The translations under genes were made by a program, and so were the position numbers. Below, piece by piece: positions 46,998-63,813 of a stretch of 64,000 bases of DNA. This DNA is from Escherichia coli (GTDB lineage Bacteria; Pseudomonadota; Gammaproteobacteria; Enterobacterales; Enterobacteriaceae): NCBI RefSeq assembly GCF_003790525.1, contig NZ_CP033635.1; one strand, 5' to 3'. The stretch's first letter is position 1, and the number at the start of each line of letters is the position of its first letter. The notes under the pieces were generated by a model that did no database searches, had not been told where the DNA came from, and saw only the letters and a program-made list of their open reading frames with translations.

Positions 46998-48056
46998 ATG
47001 TTCGGCAATGATATTTTCACCCGTGTAAAACGTTCAGAAAATAAAAAAATGGCGGAAATCGCCCAATTCCTGCATGAAAATGATTTGAGCGTTGACACCA
47101 CAGTCGAAGTATTTATTACCGTAACCCGCGATGAAAAGCTTATCGCGTGCGGTGGAATTGCCGGAAATATTATTAAATGCGTTGCTATCAGTGAATCCGT
47201 TCGCGGTGAAGGACTGACGCTGACATTAGCCACTGAATTGATAAACCTCGCCTATGAGCGGCACAGCACGCATCTGTTTATTTATACCAAAACCGAATAC
47301 GAGGCGCTGTTCCGCCAGTGCGGTTTTTCCACGCTGACCAGTGTACCCGGCGTGATGGTGCTGATGGAAAACAGCGCCACGCGACTGAAACGCTATGCCG
47401 AATCGCTGAAAAAATTTCGTCATCCAGGGAACAAGATTGGCTGCATTGTGATGAACGCCAATCCCTTTACGAATGGTCACCGTTATCTGATTCAACAGGC
47501 TGCAGCACAGTGCGACTGGTTGCATCTGTTTTTAGTTAAAGAAGATTCTTCACGCTTTCCCTATGAAGACCGGCTGGATCTGGTGTTAAAAGGCACCGCC
47601 GATATTCCACGCCTGACTGTGCATCGCGGCTCCGAATACATCATCTCCCGCGCTACGTTCCCTTGCTACTTCATTAAAGAACAGAGCGTCATTAACCATT
47701 GTTACACCGAAATTGATCTGAAGATTTTCCGTCAGTACCTCGCTCCCGCGCTGGGTGTAACTCACCGCTTTGTCGGTACTGAACCCTTTTGTCGTGTTAC
47801 CGCCCAGTACAACCAGGATATGCGCTACTGGCTGGAAACGCCGACTATCTCCGCACCGCCCATCGAACTGGTTGAAATTGAGCGGCTGCGTTACCAGGAG
47901 ATGCCGATATCCGCTTCCCGGGTACGTCAACTGCTGGCGAAAAACGATCTCACGGCTATCGCGCCGCTGGTCCCTGCAGTCACGCTGCATTATTTGCAGA
48001 ACCTGCTTGAGCACTCCCGCCAGGACGCGGCAGCTCGTCAAAAGACCCCCGCATGA
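46998..48056 (+). CDS. citC: [citrate (pro-3S)-lyase] ligase, 352 aa
   Basis: start MFGNDIFTRV at ATG 46998; ORF-track start 46911 is an upstream extension. Confidence 0.93.
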   Translation: MFGNDIFTRVKRSENKKMAEIAQFLHENDLSVDTTVEVFITVTRDEKLIACGGIAGNIIKCVAISESVRGEGLTLTLATELINLAYERHSTHLFIYTKTEYEALFRQCGFSTLTSVPGVMVLMENSATRLKRYAESLKKFRHPGNKIGCIVMNANPFTNGHRYLIQQAAAQCDWLHLFLVKEDSSRFPYEDRLDLVLKGTADIPRLTVHRGSEYIISRATFPCYFIKEQSVINHCYTEIDLKIFRQYLAPALGVTHRFVGTEPFCRVTAQYNQDMRYWLETPTISAPPIELVEIERLRYQEMPISASRVRQLLAKNDLTAIAPLVPAVTLHYLQNLLEHSRQDAAARQKTPA

Positions 48057-58458: not shown

Positions 58459-58829
58459 CTATACTTCCTCCGTGTTTTCGATGAGATGTAAGGTAACCAA
58501 TTTTTGCCGATTCGGCTAATGCGTTTCCATTATCAAATCGATAAGTTTTACCTTACAACCTTCGTAAGACAACTTTGTGAACTTTGCACCGCCAGCGGCG
58601 ATAAAAAGTAAAATGGCCCCCTTTCCAGGTGACCGTGTAATCTGAACTACCCTTTGGTATCTTCAGCGCCTGCCTGCAGGCTGAGGTGTTGCCCTTACAA
58701 ATGCAACAACGACGTGGATTACAACACCCTCATAAACAAAGGGCAATCACCTGATCTAAGCTCTTACCTATGACAGTGATAGGTTATGCCTTTTACCCGA
58801 CTTTTGCACTGACTGAAAAGGACAAATTA
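58459..58829. promoter_or_regulatory. divergent ahpC / dsbG control region (OxyR-regulated per literature)
   Basis: 371-bp non-coding spacer between divergent genes; OxyR site expected from established knowledge, not motif-confirmed. Confidence 0.5.
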
Positions 58830-59576
58830 ATGTTAAAAAAGATACTTTTACTGGCTCTGCTTCCTGCAATCGCCTTCGCAGAGGAACTTCCTGCCCCAGT
58901 AAAAGCGATTGAAAAACAGGGCATTACAATCATCAAAACGTTCGATGCTCCCGGAGGAATGAAAGGTTATCTCGGCAAGTATCAGGATATGGGCGTCACC
59001 ATCTACCTGACTCCAGATGGTAAGCACGCTATCTCCGGTTACATGTACAACGAGAAAGGTGAAAACCTGAGTAACACACTTATCGAAAAAGAAATTTACG
59101 CACCCGCCGGACGCGAAATGTGGCAACGGATGGAACAATCCCACTGGCTCCTCGACGGTAAAAAAGACGCGCCGGTCATTGTCTACGTCTTCGCCGATCC
59201 GTTCTGCCCATATTGTAAACAGTTCTGGCAGCAGGCTCGCCCGTGGGTAGATTCTGGCAAAGTGCAATTAAGAACATTGTTGGTTGGCGTTATCAAGCCA
59301 GAAAGCCCGGCGACAGCAGCGGCAATTCTTGCCTCCAAAGATCCCGCAAAAACCTGGCAAGAATATGAAGCCTCTGGTGGCAAGCTTAAGCTAAACGTGC
59401 CTGCAAACGTAAGTACAGAGCAAATGAAAGTGTTAAGCGATAACGAGAAACTGATGGACGATCTGGGGGCAAATGTCACGCCAGCTATCTATTACATGAG
59501 TAAGGAAAATACACTGCAACAGGCCGTGGGGTTGCCCGATCAGAAAACGCTTAATATCATTATGGGGAATAAATAA
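58830..59576 (+). CDS. dsbG: periplasmic thiol:disulfide oxidoreductase DsbG, 248 aa
   Basis: ATG 58830 with AAGGA 7 nt upstream; signal peptide [17 protein letters not shown]; CPYC active site; in-frame upstream extension to 58770 exists. Confidence 0.92.
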
Positions 59577-59581
59577 AAGAT

Positions 59582-59640
59582 AATTCATGGATGGTTGAAA
59601 TATATTCCTGCTTTTCAACCATCCTAAAAAAGCATGAATT
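59582..59640. repeat. nested inverted repeat downstream of dsbG (aattcatg / ggatggttgaaa ... tttcaaccatcc / catgaatt)
   Basis: 12-bp inner stem and 8-bp outer stem read directly; followed by A-run rather than T-run. Confidence 0.45.
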
Positions 59641-59780
59641 GCTCGTAACCCACCTGACAGCTATGCTATTTTAGAAAATCTTAATCCAAAGTTAAGCAGA
59701 AAAACATAACACATATAAATACAACAACATTATTGATCAAGTGAATGATTTATGGAAGAGACAATACAACGGAGTATGTT

Positions 59781-60683
59781 ATGGCTAATCTTTATGATCT
59801 AAAAAAATTTGACCTCAATTTACTGGTTATATTTGAATGTATTTATCAACATCTCAGCATTAGTAAAGCGGCAGAATCATTATATATAACGCCCTCTGCT
59901 GTTAGTCAGTCGTTACAACGTTTACGTGCGCAATTTAATGACCCGTTATTCATTCGCTCAGGGAAAGGTATCGCGCCGACTACAACAGGGTTAAACCTGC
60001 ATCACCATCTTGAGAAAAATCTCAGAGGCCTTGAACAAACGATCAATATCGTTAATAAGTCTGAACTAAAGAAAAATTTTATTATCTACGGTCCTCAGCT
60101 TATTTCTTGTACTAATAACAACATGCTAATCCGCTGTCTTAGACAAGATACTTCAATCGATATAGAATGCCATGACATACTGCTTTCAGCTGAAAATGCC
60201 GAAGAACTGTTGGTTCAACGCAAAACTGACCTGGCAATTACACTACAACCAGTAATTAGCCGCTCTGTCATCTGCATGCCGTTACATACTATTCGCAATT
60301 CTCTTATATGTAGCAACAGACATCCTCGTATTACCGATACCAGTAACTATGAACAAATTATCGCCGAAGAATTCACCCTGTTGATATCTAAATCAGCAGG
60401 GATTGACGAAATTCAAATGGACATAGATGAACGTTTTATGAACCGTAAAGTTTCATTTCGCAGTTCTTCTTTGATGACTATAATTAATAGTATTTCTGTT
60501 ACTGACTTATTAGGCATTGTGCCCACCGAACTGTACAATTTACATCGTGACTTTTTGAAGTTAAAAGAAATAAAACTGGAACAACCTCTTCCTGCGGTTA
60601 AACTTTATATTTCCTATAACAAGGCTTCGTTGAACAACCTTGTCTTCTCCCGATTCATAGATCGTTTAAATGATAGCTTCTGA
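59781..60683 (+). CDS. ybdO: LysR-family transcriptional regulator, 300 aa
   Basis: N-terminal HTH (LNLLVIFECIYQHLSISKAAESLYITPSAVSQSLQRLR); strongly AT-rich coding sequence. Confidence 0.88.
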   Translation: MANLYDLKKFDLNLLVIFECIYQHLSISKAAESLYITPSAVSQSLQRLRAQFNDPLFIRSGKGIAPTTTGLNLHHHLEKNLRGLEQTINIVNKSELKKNFIIYGPQLISCTNNNMLIRCLRQDTSIDIECHDILLSAENAEELLVQRKTDLAITLQPVISRSVICMPLHTIRNSLICSNRHPRITDTSNYEQIIAEEFTLLISKSAGIDEIQMDIDERFMNRKVSFRSSSLMTIINSISVTDLLGIVPTELYNLHRDFLKLKEIKLEQPLPAVKLYISYNKASLNNLVFSRFIDRLNDSF

Positions 60684-60829
60684 TTCATTACCACTGACAA
60701 ATAATATATTACGCATCAATTAATTCATTATGTGAATATAAAATAATGTGCTCTATCTTGCTTCGTTTATCCTATAATTAGCGGATTCATCTCACGAGTC
60801 ACCCCGTAACGTTCAGAGAGCGTTTTTAG

Positions 60830-62050
60830 ATGTCTATTTATAAAATCCCGCTTCCACTGAATATTCTGGAAGCTGCAAAAGAACGTATTACCTGGACACT
60901 TAATACCCTACCCCGTATCTGTGTTTCTTTTTCGGGTGGTAAAGATTCCGGATTAATGCTGCATCTGACCGCCGAAATTGCCCGACAAATGGGCAAAAAA
61001 ATCTGCGTTTTGTTTATCGACTGGGAAGCGCAGTTCTCATGCACTATTAACTATGTTCAGTCATTACGTGAGTTTTACGCCGATGTCATCGAAGAGTTTT
61101 ACTGGGTTGCGCTCCCGCTTACGACGCAAAATTCCCTTTCTCAATACCAACCCGAATGGCAGTGCTGGGAACCTGATGTCGAATGGGTACGTCAGCCCCC
61201 GCAAGATGCGATAACCGATCCTGACTTTTTCTCCTTTTACCAGCCTGGCATGACCTTCGAACAATTTGTGCGTGAGTTTGCCGAATGGTTTTCGCAAAAA
61301 CGTCCGGCGGCGATGATGATCGGCATCCGTGCGGATGAGTCCTACAACCGTTTTGTCGCCATCGCCAGTTTAAATAAACAACGTTTTGCCGATGATAAGC
61401 CCTGGACTACTGCCGCACCAGGCGGTCATAGCTGGTACATTTACCCCATCTACGACTGGAAAGTCGCTGATATCTGGACCTGGTATGCTAACCATCAACA
61501 GCTCTGTAACCCACTGTATAATATAATGTATCAGGCAGGCGTTCCTCTGCGTCATATGCGAATTTGCGAACCTTTTGGCCCGGAGCAACGGCAAGGATTA
61601 TGGCTCTATCACGTTATCGAACCGGATCGCTGGGCTGCTATGTGCGCACGAGTCAGCGGGGTAAAAAGTGGCGGCATTTACGCCGGACATGATAATCATT
61701 TTTATGGTCATCGGAAAATCCTCAAGCCAGAACATTTAGACTGGCAAGAATATGCATTATTGCTGCTCAATAGCATGCCGGAAAAAACAGCTGAGCATTA
61801 CCGCAATAAAATCGCCATTTATTTGCACTGGTATCAGAAAAAAGGCATCGAAGTTCCACAAACCCAGCAAGGGGACATTGGCGCGAAAGATATCCCCTCC
61901 TGGCGGCGAATATGCAAAGTTTTACTCAATAACGATTACTGGTGCCGGGCATTATCATTTAGTCCTACGAAAGCGAAGAACTATCAGCGTTATAACGAAC
62001 GGATAAAAGGAAAACGTCAGGAATGGGGGATACTATGCAACAACGATTAA
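60830..62050 (+). CDS. ybdN: PAPS-reductase-like / PP-loop ATP-pyrophosphatase family protein, 406 aa
   Basis: PP-loop SFSGGKDS near N-terminus; matches recalled YbdN. Confidence 0.9.
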   Translation: MSIYKIPLPLNILEAAKERITWTLNTLPRICVSFSGGKDSGLMLHLTAEIARQMGKKICVLFIDWEAQFSCTINYVQSLREFYADVIEEFYWVALPLTTQNSLSQYQPEWQCWEPDVEWVRQPPQDAITDPDFFSFYQPGMTFEQFVREFAEWFSQKRPAAMMIGIRADESYNRFVAIASLNKQRFADDKPWTTAAPGGHSWYIYPIYDWKVADIWTWYANHQQLCNPLYNIMYQAGVPLRHMRICEPFGPEQRQGLWLYHVIEPDRWAAMCARVSGVKSGGIYAGHDNHFYGHRKILKPEHLDWQEYALLLLNSMPEKTAEHYRNKIAIYLHWYQKKGIEVPQTQQGDIGAKDIPSWRRICKVLLNNDYWCRALSFSPTKAKNYQRYNERIKGKRQEWGILCNND

Positions 62051-62652
62051 CGCAGGATTTAACCCAATTTCTCGCCAGCTTGCCGGAAGATGATCGCATC
62101 AAAGCGATTAATGAAATCCGCATGGCGATCCATCAGGTTAGCCCCTTTCGTGAAGAGCCAGTGGATTGCGTTCTGTGGGTTAAAAACAGCCAACTTATGC
62201 CTAATGATTACAACCCAAACAACGTGGCACCACCCGAAAAAAAACTGCTGAAAAAATCCATTGAAATAGATGGTTTTACCCAACCCATTGTGGTCACGCA
62301 TACGGATAAAAATGCCCTGGAAATCGTGGATGGTTTTCACCGCCATGAAATTGGTAAAGGCTCATCATCGTTAAAATTACGCTTAAAAGGTTATTTGCCG
62401 GTGACCTGTCTGGAAGGTACGCGTAATCAACGCATCGCCGCAACTATTCGTCATAATCGCGCTCGTGGACGTCACCAAATCACTGCCATGTCAGAAATCG
62501 TCCGAGAACTCAGCCAGTTGGGATGGGACGATAATAAAATTGGCAAAGAGCTGGGAATGGACAGCGACGAAGTGTTGCGCCTGAAGCAAATTAACGGCCT
62601 GCAAGAGTTGTTTGCCGACCGTCAATTTTCCCGCGCCTGGACGGTTAAATAA
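62023..62652 (+). CDS. ybdM: ParB-like nuclease (ParB/Srx) domain protein, 209 aa
   Basis: DGFHRHE motif (DGxHR class); 28-nt overlap with ybdN. Confidence 0.9.
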   Translation: MGDTMQQRLTQDLTQFLASLPEDDRIKAINEIRMAIHQVSPFREEPVDCVLWVKNSQLMPNDYNPNNVAPPEKKLLKKSIEIDGFTQPIVVTHTDKNALEIVDGFHRHEIGKGSSSLKLRLKGYLPVTCLEGTRNQRIAATIRHNRARGRHQITAMSEIVRELSQLGWDDNKIGKELGMDSDEVLRLKQINGLQELFADRQFSRAWTVK

Positions 62653-63813
62653 CTAAAGCTGGCGCAGGCGTTCTGCTGCTGCCAGCAACGTCGATTCCTT
62701 CTTGGCAAAACAGAGACGAATCAGTTTATGTGGGAAGGGATCGGCGCAAAACACCGACAGCGGAATCGCCGCTACGCCGTGCTCCCGCGTCAGCCACTGG
62801 CAAAACTCAACATCATCCAGCGTAGATACGGCGCTGTAATCCACCAGCAAAAAGTATGTACCTTCGCACGGTAAAATCTCCAGCCGACTTTCATTTAAGG
62901 CATTCACCAGAATATCGCGCTTCTGGCGATAAAAGTCCGGTAACGCAAGATAATGCTCAGGTTCTGCACGTAGCATATCGGCAAGCGCCAACTGTGCCGG
63001 GGTATTCACCGAAAAGGTCAGATACTGATGCACTTTGCGGATCTCGGCGCTGATGGGCGCAGGTGCAACGCAATACCCCACTTTCCAGCCGGTCATATGA
63101 TAGGTCTTGCCAAACGATGACACCGCCACCGCTCGCTCACACAATTGCGGATGCGCCAGCACGCTGGCATGGCCCTGTTGTGAAAAATTGATGTGCTCGT
63201 AGACTTCATCGCTAATGACAAAAATCTCGTGCCCGGCAATCGCCTGCCACAGAGCGGAGAAATCAGCCTACTGCCAGACAGTTGCACTGGGGTTATGCGG
63301 GGTGTTGAGGATCACCAGTCGGGTGCGCTCGCTTAACAATGCGGCAAATTCCTGCCAGTCCACGCGAAAATGCGGTGGTTGCAGTGCAATACGTTTCACT
63401 ATTCCCCCCGAAAGCGCGATGGCGGGCGCGTAACTGTCATAGCTGGGATCAAAGCAAATCACTTCATCGCCATTGCGAACCAATGCAGTAATCGCTGCGT
63501 ATAGCGCTTCCGTCGCCCCTGCTGTTACGGTGATATCGCTGTCGGCATCTGGTTGATAGCCATACAGCCGTTCCGTTTTCTGAGCAATCGCCTCGCGTAA
63601 TGCCTGCACGCCGGTCATGGGTGCGTATTGGTTTGCCCCCTGGGCAACGTGGTACGCCAGCCGTTCCTGCAAATAGCGCGGACCATCAAAATCAGGAAAG
63701 CCTTGCGACAGGTTAATCGCCTGGTGTTGCTGCGCCAGTGCACTCATCTGGGTGAAAATAGTGGTGCCAAGTTGTGGAAGTTTGCTTTGTGGAATCAGAG
63801 GGTTATTTGTCAT
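62653..63813 (-). pseudogene. ybdL: methionine aminotransferase (PLP fold type I) interrupted by an in-frame TAG after codon 181
   Basis: N-terminal ORF 63268-63813 ends ...SATVWQ at a TAG (plus-strand CTA at 63268-63270); reading continues in the same frame ADFSALWQAIAGHEIF... into the C-terminal ORF 62653-63162 that carries the PLP-lysine motif SFGKTY. Confidence 0.85.

Follow-up and report, generated by a model that had tools for sequence, protein, structure and literature searches.

The ybdN and ybdM genes of Escherichia coli, which follow the LysR-type regulator gene citR (ybdO) in the 64,000-nucleotide stretch of contig NZ_CP033635.1 analyzed here (the window), resemble several described systems in which a PP-loop protein similar to phosphoadenosine phosphosulfate (PAPS) reductase is paired with a member of the ParB superfamily. 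DndB/DndC, SspD and BrxP (type 4 BREX) share with ybdNM both this pairing, in which their PP-loop protein is an ATP pyrophosphatase acting on DNA, and the presence of conserved cysteines, though the cysteine pattern of YbdN is not the same; DndC carries a [4Fe-4S] cluster on three cysteines and, in addition, a distinct Cys dyad (PMC10853773). In Dpd (7-deazaguanine DNA modification), the ParB-like ATPase DpdB occurs with the TGT homologue DpdA and not with a PAPS-reductase-like protein (PMC12839542). IbrA and IbrB, the immunoglobulin-binding regulators of the IbrAB island of E. coli ECOR-9, share the complete layout: a gene with PAPS_reduct and DUF3440 domains is followed by a co-oriented, tightly coupled gene whose product combines a ParB N-terminal domain with a helix-turn-helix (HTH). 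The presence of IbrB enhances Eib expression, according to the passage of PMC7649339 that cites Sandt (2002), and both proteins are named "co-activator of prophage gene expression" in databases.

By architecture and names, ybdNM can be assigned to the IbrA/IbrB family. RefSeq lists YbdM as "IbrB-like domain-containing protein" (and YbdN as "phosphoadenosine phosphosulfate reductase"), the annotation "Co-activator of prophage gene expression IbrA/IbrB" is attached to homologues of the pair, and the two proteins match phrog_2302 (YbdN residues 2-387, 3e-76) and phrog_2159 (YbdM, 1.1e-68) in PHROGs. IbrA-type copies on plasmids, in prophages and in other enterics are ~57-62% identical to YbdN. 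Unlike the IbrAB copies, which reside on islands, prophages and virulence plasmids, ybdNM occupies a core, syntenic chromosomal locus under CitR and H-NS, and an Eib-like activation phenotype has been reported for IbrAB but not for ybdNM.

An initial annotation, made from the letters of the window alone, had described an AT-rich LysR gene ahead of overlapping PAPS-reductase-like and ParB-like genes, related to IbrA/IbrB and with no defined biochemical function. Most of this holds. The three open reading frames (ORFs) are intact, and the motifs SFSGGKDS (YbdN residues 33-40) and DGFHRHE (YbdM residues 103-109) are present, backed by Pfam and PHROGs, and judged by these profiles to be true family matches, beyond chance. 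Both domain calls are correct in Pfam, the kinship is borne out by the names and PHROGs matches given above, and a literature search yielded no paper defining the biochemistry of the pair; a 2022 paper calls YbdM "completely uncharacterized". The locus itself is already known: its genes are annotated, its regulator is named and studied, and its kinship to IbrAB appears in database names. The initial annotation did not recognize the LysR gene as the characterized citR, for which H-NS silencing has been published (Higashi et al., 2016).

Our best reading is that ybdNM is a chromosomal, normally silenced copy of an obligate two-protein module of mobile-element origin. With a probability of roughly 0.4, we further propose that it is a DNA-directed, ATP-dependent pair of the IbrA/IbrB type performing covalent chemistry. 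YbdM would bind DNA in a nucleotide-dependent manner and position YbdN. At the cost of ATP (yielding AMP and pyrophosphate, PPi), YbdN would then prime some group of the DNA, or of a target bound to it, for covalent change; a Cys triad of YbdN may hold a metal or Fe-S center from which the incoming group, perhaps sulfur, is supplied. What would be seen from outside is changed expression of horizontally acquired genes, as reported for IbrAB and the prophage eib genes. This proposal is supported by the folds and motifs of both proteins, their near-absolute pairing, their DNA-centered neighbors, purifying selection, conserved cysteines and regulation by CitR and H-NS, and also by the enhancement of Eib expression by IbrB and by plasmid copies that lie beside iroBCDN and fae.

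Folds and motifs of YbdN and YbdM

YbdN consists of a PAPS-reductase-like core followed by DUF3440 (Table 1), and its AlphaFold2 (AF2) model has a predicted local distance difference test score (pLDDT) of 92. The best PDB profile match of the YbdN family was CysD (1.9e-10); CysD and the PAPS domain of eukaryotic flavin mononucleotide (FMN) adenylyltransferase (FMNAT)/FAD synthase were its best structural and profile matches overall. An ATP-type loop, G-K-D-S/C, is common to YbdN, CysD (IGKDS) and FMNAT (GGKDC), at a place where the PAPS reductase 6vpu reads SSSFGIQ, and the three also share a P-x-x-D-W-x-x-x-D-[IV]-W motif; adenylyl transfer with release of PPi would therefore be implied for YbdN. 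Within the family, SGGKDS, D64, E66, R167, E170, S171, R174, D209 and D214 are 95-100% conserved. YbdN differs from CysD and FMNAT in its Trp-rich insert (W110, W113, W119), in DUF3440, in its obligate partner of DNA-binding type and in having no CysN-like GTPase partner. The curated CysD models of NCBIfam score YbdN far below their cutoffs.

The RefSeq product name implies a second PAPS reductase of assimilatory sulfate reduction, which we regard as scarcely credible. The curated reductase models gave 24-35 bits against cutoffs of 154-254 (TIGR02057, 35.1 against 254.2; PRK02090, 33.9 against 154; TIGR00434, 24.3 against 165.1). CysH, a PAPS/adenosine phosphosulfate (APS) reductase, has a degenerate loop (SSSFGIQ) and a C-terminal catalytic Cys tail, whereas YbdN has SGGKDS, its C-terminal half is DUF3440, and none of its conserved cysteines matches the catalytic one. 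An assimilatory enzyme with intact catalytic Cys motifs, the outcome that the initial annotation had set against its own view, is thus not what we found, and the obligate ParB-like HTH partner and the DNA-enzyme neighbors described below likewise speak against it. Because of the ATP-type loop and the sub-cutoff PAPS reductase scores, we place YbdN in the CysD/FMNAT/DndC clade, as a predicted ATP-using PP-loop enzyme and not a PAPS reductase.

When 154 homologues were aligned to the family hidden Markov model with hmmalign, three conserved cysteines stood out in DUF3440. C372 is 94-95% conserved, and most homologues have C362 or a Cys two residues further on. C94 and C246 alternate: Ala94 is present in all enterobacterial chromosomal YbdN proteins, and 34 of the 39 members of the Ala94 group have Cys246. 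Together, C246, C362 and C372 form a possible metal or 3-Cys [4Fe-4S] site.

Three cysteines could bind such a cluster as they do in DndC (PMC10853773), and this, along with the matching pairing of a ParB-superfamily protein and a PAPS-reductase-like PP-loop protein, brings up Dnd/Ssp-type phosphorothioation, with YbdN corresponding to DndC/SspD and YbdM to DndB. DndC models do match YbdN weakly (NCBIfam TIGR03183, 8.5e-5; PADLOC, 2.3e-5, residues 155-254), and in the CitR study (Rodionova et al., 2022) the cys regulon is induced along with de-repression of ybdNM. However, the TIGR03183 score is 21.6 bits against a cutoff of 290.4, only residues 145-254 of the core align to DndC models, and the cysteines lie outside PAPS_reduct, in the separate DUF3440. 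YbdN contains no adjacent Cys-Cys pair, so a dyad, if taken to mean adjacent cysteines, would be absent. No dndA/iscS, dndD, dndE or ssp gene was found among the recurrent neighbor clusters of the 153 loci surveyed below, the E. coli neighbors being citR, dsbG and ybdL. We consider phosphorothioation highly improbable. The parallel to Dnd and Dpd drawn in the initial annotation stands for the pairing of protein types in Dnd; the Dpd half is loose, the partner of DpdB being a TGT (PMC12839542), and no TGT-like gene was present among the recurrent neighbors. Similarity to BrxP is confined to residues 29-102 (PADLOC, 1.7e-4), and no BREX gene (brx/pglZ) was found near ybdNM or among the recurrent neighbors.

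YbdM begins with an N-terminal helical hairpin, continues with a ParB/sulfiredoxin-fold domain (NDYNPN box, DGFHR, RHNRARG box) and ends in an HTH. Pfam detects ParB_N (2.8e-4), and the AF2 model has a pLDDT of 85.5. In profile alignments DGFHR falls on ParB GERR and NDYNPN on ParB box I. The top structural match was the CTP-dependent regulator KorB, and at the C terminus the helices resemble those of the KorB DNA-binding domain and of the sigma region 4 HTHs. The ParB CTP switches (ParB/Spo0J, Noc, KorB, PadC, VirB) likewise have a ParB N-domain fold followed by an HTH. In YbdM, however, a sulfiredoxin/DndB-like G-x-H-R replaces the GERRxR patch, the protein ends after the HTH (205-209 residues) and has no C-terminal dimerization domain, and no parS-like site was found nearby; NCBIfam parB_part gives 15.8 bits against a cutoff of 58.45. 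Compared with the ParB/Srx-fold phosphotransferases sulfiredoxin, SbnI and free serine kinase, YbdM adds the HTH and the N-terminal hairpin. The catalytic Cys of the sulfiredoxin motif G-C-H-R corresponds to a Phe in YbdM (DGFHR). A sulfiredoxin-peroxiredoxin link to the nearby ahpC gene was considered and rejected, ahpCF being a neighbor only in the enterobacterial synteny block. No solved structure of a close relative of either protein was found. We conclude that YbdM is, to judge by its profile and model matches, a protein of DNA-binding type in which a ParB/sulfiredoxin-fold nucleotide-binding domain is joined to an HTH.

The likeness to KorB also suits a different account, a nucleotide-gated transcription co-activator that works without nucleic-acid modification. 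YbdM/IbrB would be a ParB/KorB/VirB-like DNA-binding switch and YbdN/IbrA would load its nucleotide pocket, or make or destroy its ligand, the two together turning on H-NS-silenced acquired genes. YbdN might, for example, adenylylate a nucleotide phosphate in the way that CysD and FMNAT adenylylate sulfate and FMN; the closest enzymatic relatives of YbdN do move AMP onto small oxyanions. The co-activator names of IbrA and IbrB agree with this account, as does the structural match to KorB and sigma region 4, while the eib enhancement with IbrAB (the cited passage of PMC7649339), the sole phenotype in the family, fits it and the covalent-chemistry proposal alike. We hold the co-activator to be possible but doubtful. 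The recognition helix of such a protein should evolve fast, yet the HTH of YbdM is near-invariant from E. coli to Bacteroidetes and Firmicutes phages, which argues against a promoter-specific activator and leaves room for a tRNA or protein target; moreover, the conserved Cys triad would have no obvious role.

Pairing and neighbors in phages, plasmids and chromosomes

An exhaustive search for YbdN homologues gave 1691 cluster representatives (50% identity, E ≤ 0.001), 221 of them at E ≤ 1e-30. ORFs were called de novo in a sample of 79 genomic and 80 viral loci. A YbdN homologue was present in 153 loci, and 151 of these had an adjacent, co-oriented YbdM homologue (136 by ORF calling and 15 more by six-frame search). 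The pair occurs in phages, plasmids and chromosomes of several phyla, with identities to the E. coli proteins across phyla of 41-58% for YbdM and 27-49% for YbdN, and overlaps of -4 to -28 nt between the two genes are the rule. Fused-looking entries in AFDB and representative P0244 appear to be frameshift or assembly products.

An SNF2-like helicase lies directly upstream in 26 loci and a second helicase family in 7; a RimI-like GNAT accompanies the pair in 25 loci, and DnaB, DNA methyltransferases, terminase and primase are also among the neighbors. In ten viral contigs, the first large same-strand ORF downstream encodes the large terminase (5), a DNA methyltransferase (2) or a replication protein (3). 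With N and M standing for the YbdN and YbdM homologues, gene order in phage XCL1123 is helicase, exonuclease, SSB, RusA ... N-M-M-M' ... portal (M' is described below), and in Arthrobacter phage Salgado it is ParB-N-ParB-methyltransferase-terminase, where N is PAPS-reductase-like. Streptococcus and Lactobacillus phages have the pair between the lysin and the early region (the lysogeny-replacement region). The near-universal ParB-type HTH partner, the helicases, the DNA methyltransferases and the phage replication and packaging modules support the nucleic-acid-related role proposed in the initial annotation. For the co-activator account, a place just 5' of the terminase, seen in several phages, is the classical position of a late activator; the SNF2, DNA methyltransferase and GNAT neighbors, on the other hand, look more like a DNA-processing module.

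Two small proteins recur with the pair, neither of which has a Pfam, NCBIfam or named PHROG match. M' (~131 residues, with W..W and WLGQAxC motifs) accompanies it in many phages (for instance L099:9608-10003 and L126:4163-5413 of the IMG/VR contigs L089-L143); its gene adjoins the pair in a Microcystis phage, in Mycobacterium phage Gaia and in Pseudoalteromonas phage XCL1123 (MN313256.1, 22574-22900). In ~20 loci M' forms a C-terminal extension fused to the YbdM-like (ParB-like) protein. The other protein, c7 (~120 residues, phrog_26647), is encoded directly 5' of YbdN homologues in 8 loci (for instance L004:1736-2098 and L101:2737-3105) and is fused to the N terminus of the YbdN homologue in one representative of 535 residues (P0124).

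On plasmids, 789 records carry a YbdN homologue, 323 of them from Klebsiella; most are of the IbrA type, ~57% identical, and come from Klebsiella, E. coli, Shigella and Salmonella. K. pneumoniae IncFIB/HI1B plasmid NZ_CP030924.1 (L169, 27332-29193) has an IbrAB-type pair directly 5' of iroBCDN and next to fecIRA, and on E. coli IncF plasmid CP057536.1 (L168, 33121-34976) such a pair has the fae (K88) fimbrial operon and a gene for an EAL-domain protein as neighbors; both copies are ~58% identical to YbdN. Placement directly beside virulence operons also speaks for the nucleotide-gated co-activator.

In Listeria monocytogenes, a core operon between pyrH/frr and tkt (L173, 5451-10432) reads hypothetical-SNF2-N-M-S-adenosylmethionine methyltransferase-DUF2785. 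Five Bacteroides genomes (L036/L041/L042/L043/L050) have GNAT-N-M beside addAB-like genes, with galE nearby in three. The pair has been domesticated independently into the core chromosomes of Enterobacteriaceae, Listeria and Bacteroides.

This domestication in unrelated core genomes, together with the high conservation of YbdM across phyla, is what one would expect if the target were a universal molecule other than DNA (tRNA, rRNA or protein) and the effects on expression were indirect. Most PP-loop enzymes (TilS, ThiI, TtuA, NcsA) act on tRNA; QueC-like Cap9 has been solved in complex with a covalently modified protein, CdnD, and the RimI-like GNAT, M' and c7 might serve as adaptors or as substrates, the latter two being found in fusions with M or N. 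To our knowledge, however, ParB-N+HTH proteins and SNF2 translocases are directed to double-stranded DNA in all characterized cases. No tRNA gene and no RNA-modification gene recurs among the neighbors, and the closer structural relatives of YbdN are CysD, FMNAT and APS reductases rather than tRNA enzymes. A non-DNA target appears to us quite unlikely.

The initial annotation had also suggested a defense-type module. Weak similarity to PADLOC models (DndC 2e-5, BrxP 2e-4), a toxin-antitoxin-like flag given to the pair in Listeria by guilt-by-association, accessory placement on plasmids and in the lysogeny-replacement region of Streptococcus and Lactobacillus phages, and a growth-rate cost of ~10% on YbdM overexpression (from the 2022 paper cited above) could be taken to indicate anti-phage defense, a toxin-antitoxin or abortive infection, or anti-defense when the pair is carried by phages and plasmids. 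The survey of homologous pairs gave little encouragement to this suggestion: what recurs in the bacterial loci, apart from the pair itself, is of housekeeping and not of defense type (in Bacteroides, addAB-like genes, ettA and galE), and PADLOC gave no specific signal for it. No PADLOC family reached a meaningful score with the three window proteins. In E. coli and its relatives the locus is core, in a fixed position with housekeeping flanks and no variable-island signature, deletion of ybdM shifts fitness by only 1-2% (same 2022 paper), and the family itself is found inside phages and plasmids. We judge a defense function to be very unlikely.

The enterobacterial locus and its regulation

The coordinates of citR, ybdN and ybdM in the RefSeq annotation of NC_010498.1 match the window ORFs (Table 1), and identity to E. 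coli SMS-3-5 is 100% over window positions 59600-62700. In K-12 the genes are b0601-b0603. The locus was found in 5422 of 5426 complete E. coli genomes, and the gene order ahpF-ahpC / dsbG-citR-ybdN-ybdM / ybdL is kept in K-12, Citrobacter, Enterobacter, Kluyvera, Pseudocitrobacter and Superficieibacter. Ratios of nonsynonymous to synonymous substitution rates (dN/dS) of 0.05 for ybdN and 0.07 for ybdM indicate purifying selection. The AT-rich character of the regulator gene was read correctly in the initial annotation: G+C content is 0.33-0.38 across 59400-60999, an interval that takes in citR and the spacer ahead of ybdN, while the flanks have 0.45-0.57.

Table 1. Positions of genes, domains and sequence elements at the citR-ybdN-ybdM locus, numbered from the first letter of the window
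Feature	Position	Strand	Remarks
citR (ybdO)	59781-60683	+	LysR-type regulator, 300 amino acids; longest ORF 59745-60683, annotated start 59781
ybdN	60830-62050	+	406 amino acids, IbrA-family PP-loop enzyme (predicted)
YbdN PAPS-reductase-like core	60917-61531	+	residues 30-234; Pfam PAPS_reduct PF01507, 4.8e-14
YbdN PP-loop SGGKDS	60932-60949	+	within SFSGGKDS
YbdN DUF3440	61538-61978	+	residues 237-383 (237-344 + 352-383); PF11922, 5.1e-23
YbdN conserved Cys codons	C246 61565-61567; C362 61913-61915; C372 61943-61945	+	all in DUF3440; hmmalign
ybdM	62023-62652	+	209 amino acids with annotated start; IbrB-family protein
YbdM DGFHR	62329-62343	+	DGFHRHE at 62329-62349
YbdM C-terminal HTH	62479-62610	+	residues ~153-196
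ybdN/ybdM overlap	62023-62050	+	28 nt from annotated start; 16 nt from start at 62035
citR-ybdN spacer	60684-60829	+	146 bp; TATAAT at 60773-60778, without a good -35
Inverted repeat	59589-59624		perfect 12-nt, GGATGGTTGAAA N12 TTTCAACCATCC, directly past the dsbG stop (dsbG 58770-59576)

The product of ybdO scored 454.8 bits against the NCBIfam equivalog model CitR NF047710 (cutoff 400), over residues 1-294 of the 295-position model, and can on this basis be identified as CitR, a characterized LysR-type regulator. The CitR study (Rodionova et al., 2022) reports a ChIP-exo peak upstream of citR-ybdNM and, in a citR mutant, increases of ybdN (log2 5.5) and ybdM (log2 2.5); the cys regulon (4-7-fold) and flagellar genes likewise rose. 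The rise of the cys regulon alongside ybdN we treat as a lead only. Polar read-through into ybdN possibly contributed to the increase, since the text searched does not state how the deletion was constructed. H-NS binds and represses ybdO, whose promoter and coding region are unusually divergent in sequence (Higashi et al., 2016). As reported, then, ybdNM is held off in E. coli by H-NS and by CitR, its reported repressor.

Across window positions 59600-60850, which include both spacers, the citR alleles of SMS-3-5 and K-12 share 80% of their DNA sequence and 89% of their protein sequence. Synonymous divergence (dS) in citR is ~1.9 (saturated), with a dN/dS of 0.03, compared with dS of 0.01-0.25 in the flanks (0.01-0.10 for ybdM, dsbG and ahpC). 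Among E. coli genomes, 1811 have a citR at least 95% identical (SMS-like) and 3550 one at 80-90% (K-12-like). The very low dN/dS suggests that this dimorphism stems from an old allele, either balanced or imported, and not from relaxed constraint. The citR-ybdN spacer is ~69% identical between the two E. coli alleles. No conserved operator was found in it, the 11 orthologous spacers being unalignable between genera, and promoter and terminator scans gave results at chance level only.

The 28-nt overlap of ybdN and ybdM noted in the initial annotation is correct for the annotated start but probably overstated. In a junction alignment of 12 enterobacterial orthologues, the position of ATG 62035 was kept as a start in all 12 (as GTG in Pseudocitrobacter), whereas ATG 62023, which falls within codons for the conserved YbdN motif E-W-G, was not. 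GGGGGA at 62025-62030 could serve as the Shine-Dalgarno sequence for ATG 62035, and the Citrobacter YbdM proteins have 205 residues. Because of these three observations, we consider it probable that ybdM starts at 62035 and that the true overlap is 16 nt.

Just 3' of dsbG, two overlapping 12-nt inverted repeats, perfect or near-perfect, occupy 59589-59639; the hairpin is likely the dsbG terminator, at the upstream edge of the AT-rich block. No other inverted repeat of at least 12 nt was found in 59560-62700. Rfam detected no RNA family in 59500-62700; outside this interval, a match to the enterobacterial small RNA STnc70 (44.1 bits, gathering threshold 40) lies on the minus strand at 58603-58696, between ahpC and dsbG.

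Elsewhere, the window differs from NC_010498.1 by an A for G at 63270, which turns Gln182 of ybdL (minus strand, 62653-63813) into a TAG stop (63268-63270). This gene, encoding a methionine aminotransferase and convergent with ybdM, consequently reads as two ORFs of 181 and 169 codons; RefSeq annotates it as intact. A further G-to-A difference is found at 47217. The window also does not have the 1.2-kb IS5-family (ISKpn26-like) insertion present in pagP of the SMS-3-5 reference (~42224), and the TTAG junction is intact.

Implications for the IbrA/IbrB family

Several points weigh against DNA-directed covalent chemistry by ybdNM. The literature search gave no substrate, product, complex or biochemical activity for any family member. 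A DNA-modifying enzyme and a nucleotide-gated regulator cannot be told apart by gene neighborhood, a pre-terminase position being a late-gene activator site too. The HTH of YbdM is unusually conserved across phyla; this is surprising in a protein that would recognize a specific DNA sequence, and the target could instead be a universal molecule other than DNA. No parS-like palindrome is present near citR-ybdN-ybdM. No fusions of YbdN with YbdM homologues were found among 3103 ORFs, and a small YbdN clade has neither C362 nor C372. Finally, the E. coli locus is without the M', c7, GNAT and SNF2 of the phage versions. Lacking these accessory proteins, the pair on the E. coli chromosome may have been pared down from a richer phage module or put to a new use.

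A more far-reaching version of the proposal, which we think unlikely, is that IbrA/IbrB and YbdN/YbdM represent an undescribed, widespread DNA modification or chromatin-switch system of phages, plasmids and core chromosomes. In it, the ParB/sulfiredoxin-HTH protein would load a CysD-like, possibly Fe-S PP-loop enzyme on DNA, often together with SNF2, a methyltransferase and the two small proteins, and an AMP-activated covalent mark, unlike methylation, phosphorothioation or deazaguanine insertion, would de-silence foreign genes or protect mobile DNA.

What our analysis adds to a locus already known is the near-absolute coupling of the two genes, the accessory M', c7, GNAT and SNF2 proteins, the argument from the ATP-type loop, the DUF3440 cysteines, a corrected ybdM start and the view of the E. 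coli pair as a reduced version of a richer phage module. YbdN is best approached as a candidate ATP-dependent adenylyltransferase that may have a metal or Fe-S site, rather than as a reductase, and always together with its ParB-like partner and DNA; phage versions that retain M' and SNF2 may be more suitable for study than the reduced E. coli pair. The family is large: its hundreds of 50%-identity clusters come from phages both temperate and lytic, from ~790 plasmids and from core genomes in Enterobacteriaceae, Listeria and Bacteroides. Should the pair indeed place a mark on DNA or act as an enzyme-driven anti-silencer, this would account for the 20-year-old "co-activator" phenotype of IbrAB and add to the known ways in which mobile elements control or protect their own DNA.

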